Assembly (NCBI GenBank): GCA_051117555.1
Contig: JBNPEG010000134.1
Coordinates: forward strand, 1 to 23,945
Direction of reading: 5' to 3'
Length of the DNA: 23,945 nucleotides
From: Elainellaceae cyanobacterium
GTDB taxonomy: Bacteria; Cyanobacteriota; Cyanobacteriia; CAZCXK01
The notes under the pieces are model-generated. The model saw only the letters and a list, made by a program, of their open reading frames with translations, did no database searches and was not told the origin of the DNA. This document shows positions 19,149 through 23,557 of the stretch, piece after piece (within the stretch, counting starts at the first letter, position 1; each line of letters opens with the position of its first letter). The position numbers and the translations under genes were made by a program.

Positions 19149-21818
19149 ATGCAACCAACTGACCCTAGCAAGTTTACTGACAAAGCTTGGGAGGCTATTG
19201 TCAGCTCCCAAGATGTGGCTCGTCGCTTCAGACATCAGCAGCTAGAGGTCGAGCATTTGGCGATCGCTCTATTAGAGCAAGAGGGGCTTGCCAACACCAT
19301 TTTAGACAAGGCAGGTGTTTCCCAATCTCGACTCAAGCAACAGCTAGAAACGTTTGCTCAACGTCAGCCCAAAGTTTCAGACAGCGATCAGCTTTATCTG
19401 GGGCGGGGTCTAGATATCATGCTCGATCGGGCGGAAACGGCTCGGCAGTCGTGGCAAGACAGCTATATCTCAATCGAACATTTGCTCATAGCATTTGCAG
19501 ATGATGAGCGGGCAGGGCGTCGCATTTGCCGCGTTGTCGATTTGGATAAGGCTCAGCTTGAGCTTGCTATTAAGGCAGTTCGCGGGAGCCAAAAAGTGAC
19601 GGATCAAAGCCCTGAATCGCGCTATGACGCGTTAGACAAATATGGTCGCGATCTCACCGAGCAAGCCAGGGTTGGCAAGTTAGACCCCGTCATTGGGCGA
19701 GATGAAGAGATTCGTCGGGTGATTCAAGTGCTGTCGCGGCGCACCAAAAATAATCCGGTATTAATTGGTGAACCTGGAGTTGGCAAAACGGCGATCGCTG
19801 AAGGATTAGCTCAACGAATTATCAACGGCGATGTTCCCGAATCTTTGAAAAATCGTCGCCTTATTTCTCTCGATATGGGGTCTTTGATTGCGGGCGCAAA
19901 ATATCGGGGTGAATTTGAAGATCGCCTCCGGTCGGTCTTAAAAGAAGTGACCGAATCAGAGGGGCAAATTGTCCTATTCATCGACGAACTGCATACGGTC
20001 GTCGGGGCGGGGGCGGGTCAAGGCAATATGGATGCAAGTAACTTGCTCAAACCCATGCTTGCCCGTGGAGAGCTTCGCTGTATCGGGGCAACAACGTTAG
20101 ACGAATACCGAAAACATATCGAAAAAGATGCCGCGTTAGAACGTCGATTTCAACAAGTCTATGTGGGGCAGCCCAGCGTCGACGATACGATTTCGATTTT
20201 GCGCGGGCTCAAAGATCGCTATCAAACGCATCACAACGTCACCATCACAGACAGCGCGCTCGTAGCAGCCGCAACCCTATCTGATCGCTATATCAGTGAT
20301 CGCTTTTTGCCAGACAAAGCCATTGACCTGGTTGATGAGGCGGCTGCCAAGCTCAAGATGGAGAACACTTCAAAGCCAGAAGAGCTTGAAACCGTCGAAC
20401 GTCGCTTGATGCAGCTTGAAATGGAAAAGCGATCGCTCGAAGCTGAAGGATACAGCGCCGGTTTGACAACTACCTATCACTCATCGCAAGAAAATCTTGA
20501 GCGCATCGAAAAAGAAGTCGTGCAGCTCAGAACAGAGCGCGATCGCCTCAACTCGCAATGGGAATCTGAAAAGCAGATGCGAGATACGATCAAAGAGTTG
20601 CGGGAAGAAGAAGAAAAACTTCAGCGACTCATTGAAAAAGCCGAGCGAGACTATGACCTGAATACGGCTGCTCAGCTTAAGTATGGTCGCCTCGAAGCCG
20701 TTCATCGAGAATTGGAAGCCAAGGAAGCTAATTTGGTGGATGTGCAATCAAGGGGAGCAGCCCTGCTACGCCAGCAGGTGACTGAAGCCGACATTGCCGA
20801 AATCGTTGCTAAATGGACAGGCATCCCAGTCAATCGCTTGCTAGAGTCTGAACGACAAAAACTCTTGCAGCTAGAAAGCTATCTACATCAGCGCGTCATT
20901 GGTCAAGAAGAACCTGTCGAGGCGGTTGCAGCAGCGATTCGTCGTGCGCGAGCAGGTATGAAAGACCCCGGTCGCCCGATTGGCTCATTTTTGTTCATGG
21001 GGCCTACGGGGGTTGGCAAAACCGAGCTTGCCCGAACCCTTGCCGAATGCCTGTTTGACACCGACGAAGCCCTCGTGCGAATCGACATGTCTGAATACAT
21101 GGAGAAGCATTCGGTTTCGCGGCTCGTGGGTGCTCCCCCCGGCTATGTTGGCTATGAAGAGGGCGGGCAGCTCTCTGAAACGATTCGTCGTCGTCCCTAT
21201 TCAGTGCTTCTATTAGATGAAGTTGAAAAGGCACATCCCGACGTCTTTAACATTCTGCTGCAAGTTCTTGATGATGGACGGGTGACTGATTCTCAAGGAC
21301 GCGTGGTCGATTTTCGCAACACCATCGTGGTGATGACCAGCAACATCGGCAGCGATCATATTTTAGATGTGTCAGGCGATGATTCTAAGTATGAAGAGAT
21401 GCGATCGCGCGTACTCAATGCCTTGCGATCGCACTTCCGCCCAGAATTTCTCAACCGAGTCGATGACATTATCCTGTTCCACCCGCTCAGCCTCAACGAA
21501 CTCCGTCAGATTGTCGGCATTCAGCTCCAGCGCATTCATCGCCTGCTGAGTGAGCAGAAGCTGTTTATGGAGGTTACTCAGCCTGCCAAGAATCGCATCG
21601 CCGAAGTCGGGTATGACCCCGTCTATGGCGCACGTCCGCTCAAGCGAGCCATTCAGCGCGAACTAGAAAACCCGCTCGCAACGAAAATTTTAGAAAACGC
21701 GTTTGCTGAAGGCGACACAATTCTAGTTGATGTCCAGGACGGGAAGATGTCATTTAAAAAGAAGCAGCCGCTCGTTAACTCGGAGCCTGTTACCGTGTCG
21801 TTAGGAACAGACGCTTAA
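19149..21818 (+). CDS. clpB: ATP-dependent chaperone ClpB (probably the cyanobacterial ClpB2-type paralog)
   Basis: Two AAA+ modules ([16 protein letters not shown]), coiled-coil middle domain, and cyanobacterial [11 protein letters not shown]-terminus. Confidence 0.96.
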
Positions 21819-21943
21819 TGAGTGTTGAATGACGTCGGGCGATTGACACCATTGACACCGACACCCCAAAAGACGGCATCACTGTCTAGTGCATTGGGCG
21901 AGGAAATCTCGCCCCTACGGAATTTCGGACATCGCACTATGTC

Positions 21944-22706: not shown

Positions 22707-22720
22707 TAATCGAGAAATGG

Positions 22721-22764
22721 GCGATCGCCCCTCCCGCTGAGATTCTCAGGGAACGGGCGATCGC
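22721..22764. terminator. HIP1-capped hairpin, possible bidirectional terminator
   Basis: GCGATCGCCC (22721-30) pairs with GGGCGATCGC (22755-64), with an inner CTGAGA-t-TCTCAG stem. Lies between the converging repeat frame and the 78-aa gene. Confidence 0.5.
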
Positions 22765-22794
22765 ACCTTTAACATTCGGCGTCACCGCCTTGGA

Positions 22795-23031
22795 TTAATC
22801 GCTTAAGCCCATGATGCGTTTTGTGAGAATTTGCATCACCTCGTTGGGATTCACGGTGGGAATGGGTTTTGACCATTCATAGGGCTGAGCGTAGCCGAGT
22901 TGATACATTTGCATGATGTGATGGTTTACTGCTTTGAGCGAACCGACGGCAATCACGCGCAGTACTTCTCGGTCGTCGTTGTTGCATGAGGATGGGTCAA
23001 ACCGCTCAGGCGGTTCGTTGGGATTTACCAT
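22795..23031 (-). CDS. Hypothetical 78-aa protein (candidate regulated effector/toxin)
   Basis: ATG preceded by AGGAG with 9-nt spacing. Motif GS...V...I..(M/L)...GYA...EWS.P.P...EVM.IL, recalled as an uncharacterised cyanobacterial family (not verified). Elaborate structured leader. Confidence 0.75.
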   Translation of the reverse strand: MVNPNEPPERFDPSSCNNDDREVLRVIAVGSLKAVNHHIMQMYQLGYAQPYEWSKPIPTVNPNEVMQILTKRIMGLSD

Positions 23032-23114
23032 GATGAAACACTCCTGTGTTTGAGAGGTATAGGAGCGCTCAAACGAGAAGCCACCCCGCTATAAGGCATC
23101 GCGAATTGGGATGG

Positions 23115-23141
23115 CTACAGGAGTGTGGTAAAACAATCCAT
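23115..23141 (-). CDS. Putative 8-aa leader peptide (MDCFTTLL*)
   Basis: GGAGG-ct-ATG GAT TGT TTT ACC ACA CTC CTG TAG; its last codons contain the anti-SD of the downstream 78-aa gene. Confidence 0.45.
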   Translation of the reverse strand: MDCFTTLL

Positions 23142-23213
23142 AGCCTCCGATTCTGCTTCTTCAGAGTTCGGGGGTTAGTCTCCCGGCACGTGTTGTGACC
23201 ACTGCTGGGGGAC
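23140..23213 (+). ncRNA. Predicted ~75-nt cis-antisense RNA (SymR-like architecture)
   Basis: Promoter-like TTGGGA-N17-TAAAAC with TGn (23106-23134). Two adjacent hairpins (23141-23177, 23178-23213) contain five G.U pairs that form only on the + strand. Confidence 0.6.
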
Positions 23214-23242
23214 GCTGCTCATGTTTGAGCGCTTGATAGCCG

Positions 23243-23271
23243 AGAATACCGCACGTTGCTAGTAAAAACAA
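23243..23271 (-). promoter_or_regulatory. Putative promoter of the leader + 78-aa gene transcript
   Basis: Minus strand TTGTTT-N17-TATTCT, placing +1 near 23236, just before the long-range stem arm 23223-23233. Confidence 0.55.
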
Positions 23272-23304
23272 CCGTATTAATGAATTTCTCTGTGGGGGGG
23301 CAAC

Positions 23305-23557
23305 CTAAATTTCGGGATGCCGTAACGGTTTGCGGGAATGGGCATGAATCCAGACACATAGGGGCGTAGGGCGTAGGGGCGTACGGGCGTAGGGGCAGGT
23401 TTTGACAGTATCGTCCTGCTGTGCAATTAACGTATTGCCTAAACCTGCCCCTACGCGACCCGTCCGTACGAATCCCGATCGTACAAACCCATCATCCAAC
23501 ATCAAAATCCTGCGAACATGATTTGGAAATACCACGGCATTTGGGGGGGTAATGATT
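23305..23557 (-). pseudogene. Internal remnant of a REP-associated tyrosine transposase (RAYT/TnpA-REP, Y1 HUH)
   Basis: Minus strand encodes NHYP, then after a frameshift AVVFPNHVRRILMLDD (cf. FVVMPNHxHGI), then a REP-doublet insert (VGAGL...TCPY) and frameshifted NRYGIP/EI. Both ends are missing. Confidence 0.65.
23387..23456. repeat. GTAG-type REP doublet (REPIN-like)
   Basis: 16-bp perfect IR GCGTAGGGGCAGGTTT / AAACCTGCCCCTACGC with a 38-nt spacer, preceded by stuttered GGGCGTA copies from 23362. Confidence 0.8.

Follow-up and report, generated by a model that had tools for sequence, protein, structure and literature searches.

A conserved five-helix leader RNA that probably gates translation of a multi-copy small-protein gene in cyanobacteria

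SAM-II and preQ1-II are translational riboswitches whose ribosome-binding site forms a pseudoknot with the aptamer, while hok, tisB and aapA3 are type I toxin mRNAs that carry structured leaders. In E. coli, the SymR RNA (RF01809) overlaps the ribosome-binding site of symE, and in the autoregulatory leaders of ribosomal protein genes a structured RNA is linked to one protein family and the site of initiation is entrapped or occluded. The RNA described here is the leader of a gene for a 78-aa protein on the minus strand of a 23,945-nucleotide stretch of DNA, which makes up an entire contig of a cyanobacterial assembly (hereafter the window). It is a conserved RNA of about 170 nt with five helices, P1 to P5. 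Like SAM-II and preQ1-II, it is a conserved and covarying 5'-UTR domain directly upstream of an ORF, whose SD can reach across the closing helix to pair with an internal strand, and this strand has an alternative partner. It differs from these riboswitches in being a five-helix junction that has no match in Rfam 15 and suggests no ligand, and in being tied to one small-protein family with up to 27 copies per genome.

With hok, tisB and aapA3 the locus shares the organization as small, multi-copy, self-contained modules, a 5' end predicted to be locked in a long-range helix, and an SD that would be occluded by an upstream anti-SD, so that activation by processing or refolding is conceivable. 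In contrast to these toxin mRNAs, the protein is predicted to be a soluble beta-alpha-beta-beta domain rather than a membrane peptide, an antisense RNA is hypothetical, and the long-range helix closes a 5' domain instead of bringing the two ends of the mRNA together. The likeness to symE/SymR concerns the strand opposite P3 and P2, which forms two hairpins that align to the entire SymR model (1-77) and include an identical GUGUUGGCGCAC; however, the matching stretch lies upstream of the ribosome-binding site and scores 29.5 bits (gathering score 61), and the organisms and proteins are unrelated. By analogy with the ribosomal-protein leaders, the conserved junction could be a protein-binding site, although the 78-aa protein has no recognised RNA-binding fold.

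A leader that sequesters the SD is a known kind of element; what is uncatalogued is this RNA family, with its architecture and copy number. No Rfam 15 family reached its gathering threshold in the window (best score between 21800 and 23945: 22.2 bits, from an unrelated miRNA model) or in 20 diverse loci, and full-text literature searches returned no description of the leader RNA. PMC12873609 presents a screen of 202 cyanobacterial genomes that was anchored on KEGG orthology groups; a screen so described would not use the 78-aa gene as an anchor, because this gene has no annotation.

The gene and its leader of about 200 nt form a module of about 500 bp that is present in 17-18 copies in its own genome. 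As delimited with blastn, the conserved DNA unit runs from about 22720 to 23295 and holds a promoter-like block of about 40 nt, the leader, the ORF and a GC-rich hairpin past the stop codon; similarity to the copies on contigs C187 and C240 stops at 22717-22720. Matches to the protein were found at 18 places in the own genome, and the other three genomes of the order had 27, 13 and 9. Conservation of the leader equalled that of the coding region, even among paralogs with 65-70% protein identity. There was no recurring neighbour gene, with no neighbour family on more than two contigs among the 17 contigs that carry a copy, and the module is therefore self-contained. The protein family is also present on 13 cyanobacterial plasmid records.

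The 78-aa protein belongs to a small-protein family for which a profile search returned 352 cluster representatives at E <= 0.001. The source names of the 10 clusters that were examined all read 'hypothetical protein' and came from diverse cyanobacteria, and the family was found in 95 of the 301 genomes of the class, often in many copies; a close homolog carries the label Elainellaceae. AlphaFold2 with 93 sequences predicted a soluble beta-alpha-beta-beta core (pLDDT 94-98 at residues 21-70; about 55 conserved residues), whereas with 18 sequences only the pLDDT was 53. The protein could not be assigned to any Pfam, NCBIfam, PADLOC or PHROGs family and had no match of note among PDB sequences. 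Structure searches gave no clear fold relative in the PDB (Foldseek E of at least 0.29, VIA Z of at most 3.8) and no RNA-binding relative above noise, and the matches in the ESM Atlas were cyanobacterial hypothetical proteins only. A phage origin was considered and rejected, as tblastn gave no match in a phage collection. The gene context held no hint of a ligand or binding protein, the sole associated gene being that of the uncharacterised family itself.

The minus strand from 23240 to 23020 folds with -78 kcal/mol (z = -4.5), and none of 200 shuffles was as stable. A repeat search recovered the three perfect inverted repeats, each 100% complementary, on which the original prediction of a translational switch at this locus had been built. 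One of these, the long stem of 11 nt between 23064-23074 and 23223-23233, is the closing helix P1 of the conserved domain and shows the strongest covariation of all its helices. Duplex folding reproduced the extension proposed for this stem, in which 6 of 7 further pairs follow a bulge of 2 nt, and gave 11+3+3 pairs and -24 kcal/mol. The features of the module are collected in Table 1.

Table 1. Coordinates of the leader RNA, the 78-aa gene and their flanks in the window. In the RNA numbering the A at 23234 is position 1, and RNA position n lies at window position 23235 - n.
Feature	Window position	Strand	RNA position	Remarks
Promoter-like block	23243..23276	-		conserved among paralogs of only 65-70% identity
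TACGGTTGT box and TATTCT	23276-23268 and 23248-23243	-		TTGTTT at 23271-23266; 17-nt spacer
P1 5' arm, AGCGCUCAAAC	23223..23233	-	2-12	helix 1; 10/11 pairs change on both sides
P2 hairpin	23178..23213	-	22-57	helix 2; variable 7-nt loop; 11/12 pairs change on both sides
P3 hairpin	23144..23174	-	61-91	helices 3-5; variable loop
P4 hairpin	23115..23143	-	92-120	helix 6; -11.9 kcal/mol in the window
Anti-SD ACACUCCUGU	23126-23117	-		in P4 loop and 3' strand; CUCC at 23123-23120
P5 hairpin, CCAUCCC / GGGGUGG	23081..23114	-	122-153	helix 7; 97.3% of cells paired
P1 3' arm, GUUUGAGCGCU	23064..23074	-	161-171	
Linker between P1 and SD, ~16 nt	23048..23063	-		holds the window-specific CUCAAAC (23054-23048)
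SD segment ACAGGAGUGU	23038..23047	-		pairs with the P4 anti-SD; 10-bp duplex, -15.7 kcal/mol
Start region of the 78-aa gene	ATG 23031; AGGAG 23045-23041	-		
78-aa ORF	22795..23031	-		uncharacterised cyanobacterial small-protein family
GC-rich hairpin after the stop codon	22720..22766	-		read from the sequence; downstream limit of the repeated unit

Within the domain, P3 has an outer stem CCCCCGA / UCGGAGG and an inner stem UCUG / CAGA, and the apical region of P5 carries a conserved UUUG..AUG. P3, P4 and P5 abut without linkers, and the junction holds the nucleotides with the highest conservation (CG at the base of P2, CUAAC, GGCUA, UAGCCAUCC and GGGUGGC). Loop diversity was 0.50-0.54 for P2 and 0.42-0.61 overall for the loops of P2 and P3, and 0.00-0.03 within subgroups for the P4 loop. 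We do not claim diversifying selection on the P2 and P3 loops, as values of 0.42-0.61 against 0.28-0.29 at third codon positions fit unconstrained sites.

Support for the fold came from 43 distinct leaders of the own order, 34 of the leaders in full length, and an alignment of 75 sequences from many families (A4). RNAalifold on the 34 full leaders found P1, P2 and P3, with 10 of 26 pairs compensatory, and at the 44 pairs of the layout most sequences in a plain MAFFT alignment had standard base pairs. In A4, 88.7% of the cells were paired as against 71.7% after shuffling, and 39 of the 44 pairs changed on both sides; because A4 was fitted to a covariance model, the modelled pairs are favoured in these figures. 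The covariation score was 0.458 as against 0.178 for shuffled alignments, with none of 500 shuffles reaching 0.458 and slid controls at no more than 0.095, although such shuffle and permutation controls overstate the significance because paralogs and kin are not independent. Independent single-sequence folds of several paralogs also recovered the layout of four hairpins. The leader is thus a multi-helix domain with covariation, as is typical of riboswitches.

An alternative, Fold B, combines an extended P4 (GGAGGCUAUGGA / UCCUGUAGCCAUCC) with a long-range CCCCCG/CGGGG pairing; folded singly, the window and roughly half of the paralogs adopt it as their minimum-energy structure. It was rejected as the conserved fold, since the compensatory changes keep P3 and P5 and, judged by eye, the U-A replacements in P3 would break it. 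When all alignment columns were screened against each other for additional pseudoknots, phylogenetic noise prevailed, and the sole lead was A119-U156 (RNA 119-121 with 154-156; window 23115-23122 with 23079-23082; AU in 57 and CG in 6 of the 75 sequences), which suggests a possible extension of P5 that would compete with the basal pairs of P4.

To follow the RNA beyond the own genome we used two covariance models, R1, built from the hand-made P1-P5 layout, and the broader R2. R1 matched 17 places in the own genome, which adjoin copies or fragments of the 78-aa gene wherever one is assembled; the match on contig C152 lies 67 bases from the contig end, and no gene is assembled there. The same model matched 11 of 26 loci from other cyanobacterial families and 48 of the 80 protein-positive genomes tested, with up to 27 matches per genome and hundreds of RNA copies overall, versus 3 of 80 protein-negative genomes. 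Even in these three, the family ORF followed 3 of 6 matches once a broader profile was used. The family ORF followed 69 of 75 diverse RNA matches, and in most of the 66 ORF-linked matches its ATG lay ~20-40 nt past the end of the model. The linkage of RNA to ORF is near-obligate, and the RNA has the position directly upstream of the controlled ORF that is expected of a riboswitch-type 5' UTR, the 5' end itself being a predicted one. Even R2 found no RNA upstream of 15 of the 26 protein loci that were the best of their genomes, nor upstream of two Nostocales plasmid copies, and the fold of one of these RNA-less upstream regions was unremarkable (z = -1.8).

The ribosome-binding site of the 78-aa gene has its complement in P4, in the loop and the 3' strand. 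As had been predicted, 23038-23047 and 23117-23126 are perfect 10-nt reverse complements; the 10-mer ACACTCCTGT is present at two places in the window, one on each strand, versus 0.04 occurrences expected, and none of 100 shuffles contained it twice. We also found an additional 7-nt pair that was absent from that prediction, in which UGGUAAA at 23030-23024, in the start-codon region, is complementary to the P4 loop at 23132-23126. The CUCC of the anti-SD was invariant in the 43 copies of the own order. Since any CUCC complements any SD, selection for an SD helix can be read only from covariation of the flanks. In the own order, the nucleotide 5' of CUCC and that 3' of GGAG formed AU in 16, GC in 12, GU in 2 and other combinations in 4 of 34 cases, which mostly reflects one A-U to G-C switch between two subgroups; locus L011 and the chimeric copy on contig C219 are exceptions that break the flank pair. 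Over 48 distinct flank sets, a mean of 4.08 bp formed beyond the core, versus 2.41 for non-cognate combinations, and none of 5000 permutations reached the observed value.

P4 and its cognate site paired with a mean of -13.6 kcal/mol, non-cognate combinations with -9.5, and the site with P2, P3 or P5 with -7.2 to -9.8. Several Nostocales-like copies had duplexes of -25 to -30 kcal/mol, with 11-19 bp that reach the start codon. Among 60 leaders, 13 duplexes were at -20 kcal/mol or below and 14 were weak (above -8 kcal/mol); the duplex covered an SD-like sequence in 47 and used at least 4 nt of the P4 3' strand in 42. The complementarity between SD and anti-SD is therefore preserved in homologous loci and covaries beyond the CUCC:GGAG core, as it should if the original prediction was right on this point, and the predicted alternative pairing that occludes the SD would correspond to the expression platform of a riboswitch. 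What found no support is the proposed mutual exclusion of the long stem and the SD helix. These two helices cross in a pseudoknot topology with a linker of 16 nt between them, and this topology alone need not make P1 and the SD helix exclusive. In the computed structures, the competition is between the ribosome-binding site and the P4 5' strand, for the P4 3' strand.

Several variants of this arrangement were seen. In 9 of the 43 copies of the own order (G000 C95 and C219; L019, L038, L041, L043, L045, L047 and L050), an insertion of ~100 nt that starts with GGCA(A/G)AAGGCA repeats separates P1 from the SD. The copy on C219 is a chimera that joins a group-A RNA core to a group-B-like SD and N-terminus. 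A subfamily made up of L095, L096, L100, L111, L118, L122 and L124 has no CUCC in P4 and carries UUUCCUCC directly after P1; its SD lies in a local hairpin (GGAGAccagaUCUC) that abuts the AUG, which looks like a different route to occluding the same site. A CCCA within 25 nt after P1 was present in 29 of 75 linkers, as against 10.5 +/- 2.7 after shuffling. It complements the GGGU of the P5 3' strand and could form a further competing pairing.

Upstream of the RNA, a simple scan called no sigma-70 promoter between 22600 and 23450. Among 74 upstream regions, 22 had a TA...T motif that starts at -14 and 21 had one that starts at -42, which corresponds to TACGGT within the upstream box. From the conserved promoter-like block we infer a promoter with a start site at about 23235-23234, and this block is what places the predicted 5' end of the RNA next to the 5' arm of P1. 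The TACGGTTGT box lies at -42 in the own order and at other distances in distant families, including Nostocales-like copies; it may be a promoter or regulator site shared by the entire paralog family.

Altogether, we propose the following mechanism. Transcription probably starts next to the P1 5' arm, and the first ~170 nt would fold such that P1 (11 bp, extendable) closes a domain from which P2, P3, P4 and P5 radiate. The ribosome-binding site would emerge ~16 nt past P1 and could pair with the P4 loop and 3' strand, in many relatives through the start codon; because of this complementarity, the P4 3' strand has two possible partners. In one state it would pair with its own 5' strand, so that the P4 hairpin is formed and the ribosome-binding site is free. 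In the other state it would pair with the ribosome-binding site in a helix that crosses P1 as a pseudoknot, and translation would be blocked. Our preferred guess for the trigger is an effector that would bind at the conserved junction and stabilise P4 and that could be a small molecule or the encoded protein; a kinetic window on the nascent transcript is a possible alternative.

We consider it fairly likely that the leader is such a cis-acting two-state translational control element with the conserved junction as its likely effector site, and the leader RNA probably gates production of the small protein by hiding the ribosome-binding site. The more specific proposal that the five-helix domain is a new effector-sensing class, acting as a riboswitch or as a site at which the encoded protein binds, is put forward tentatively, as something possible that we would not expect. 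The leader offers a testable regulatory element for a widespread and uncharacterised small-protein family, and if an effector exists it would define a new class of sensor. If a new effector-sensing class is indeed present, one signal would gate translation of an entire paralogous family in filamentous cyanobacteria with 10-27 copies per genome, and this regulon would be wired wholly via a repeated RNA sensor.

The main rival to two-state control is a type I toxin-antitoxin-like module, with a role in addiction or stress, in which the leader would keep the mRNA of a harmful small protein inert and a cis antisense RNA would be the antidote. This antisense RNA would start from a promoter in the P4 loop and cover P3 and P2. 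Such a function would agree with a dispersed, self-contained module in many copies, some of them on plasmids, and with an occluding leader that buries the ribosome-binding site in predicted long-range structure. It would also agree with the ANNNUA that 66 of 75 sequences carry in the P4 loop, as against 24.1 +/- 3.8 after shuffling, and that reads TANNNT on the other strand; however, the loop in the window itself reads GUUUUA, which gives TAAAAC and so misses the final T, no -35 element or terminator for an antisense RNA was found, and the simple promoter scan called nothing. On the opposite strand of P3 and P2, SymR was matched below threshold in 3 of 20 loci with 25.5-29.5 bits, but the best of these scores reaches half of the 61 bits needed for gathering, and the three loci are mutually homologous. 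The loops of P2 and P3 are the most variable sites, as expected for discrimination loops, yet their diversity is not far above that of third codon positions and may be neutral. In addition, the protein is predicted to be a soluble domain and not a hydrophobic peptide, and PADLOC returned no match. We regard a toxin-antitoxin function as unlikely. If it did apply, it would be of interest because such systems are still almost unknown in cyanobacteria, for which PMC12390103 reports a first candidate.

Two observations on the opposite strand are added here. At the P4 loop (23123-23135; loci L079-L138), ANNNUA is mostly AUUUUA or AGUUUA, the opposite TANNNT amounts to a minimal -10 box, and a transcript from this box is predicted to start near the border of P3 and P4. 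In the sub-threshold matches to SymR (L079:557-629:+, L134:552-623:+ and L105:98-170:-), 12 consecutive nt of loop and stem within the aligned block are identical.

A constitutive structural leader would need no switching at all, and its fold would protect the 5' end and keep translation permanently low through fixed weak initiation. This would be in line with a 5' end that is predicted to be buried in P1, with computed energies that favour the site duplex over the P4 hairpin in 45 of 60 leaders, and with the lack of any indication of an effector. A fixed occluding hairpin, however, needs neither a five-helix junction with conserved nucleotides nor a P4 5' strand that covaries with the site-pairing 3' strand (helix 6), and we find this reading improbable. 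That the RNA is an independent non-coding RNA, either trans-acting or belonging to a mobile element, which merely travels beside the ORF is very improbable: such an RNA could tolerate the ~100-nt insertion between P1 and SD that 9 of the 43 copies carry, and 5 of 75 matches do lack a family ORF within 470 nt, but neither the sequence nor a scan gave a U-tract terminator after P1, the ATG keeps its short distance from the end of the model, the ribosome-binding site covaries with P4, no Rfam family matches and the protein has no phage match.

Equally little credence can be given to the switch as it was originally conceived, in which translation of a uORF, or a local hairpin that competes with the long stem, toggles access to the SD: the window does contain a uORF of 8 codons (AUG 23141, UAG 23117-23115) that lies within P4, has a GGAGG upstream and terminates inside the anti-SD, as well as an exact 7-nt hairpin GUUUGAG/CUCAAAC (23048-23054 with 23068-23074), but in the alignments of other subgroups the AUG of the uORF is displaced or absent, and the hairpin is worth only -6.4 kcal/mol and was confined to the window, the perfect complement of the P1 3' arm in the linker being present in 1 of 43 copies. 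The original prediction also named 5'-end processing and antisense binding as ways to toggle the SD, and either is conceivable.

The surroundings of the two-state leader proposed here hold further repeats. Just upstream of the module, 23360-23470 contains runs of GGGGCGTA-like heptamers and an inverted repeat (23386-23457); these recur with 87-91% identity on contigs C187, C152, C256 and C28 and form a separate dispersed repeat. In three loci of one genome (L120, L121 and L133), the RNA is followed by a palindromic GGGGCGAG...CTCGCCCC, with no family ORF within 470 nt, and these may be modules that were disrupted by a small inserted repeat. Finally, a 42-nt sequence at 21890-21931, just downstream of an 889-aa ORF (19149-21818), is present on 12 other contigs with 90-100% identity.
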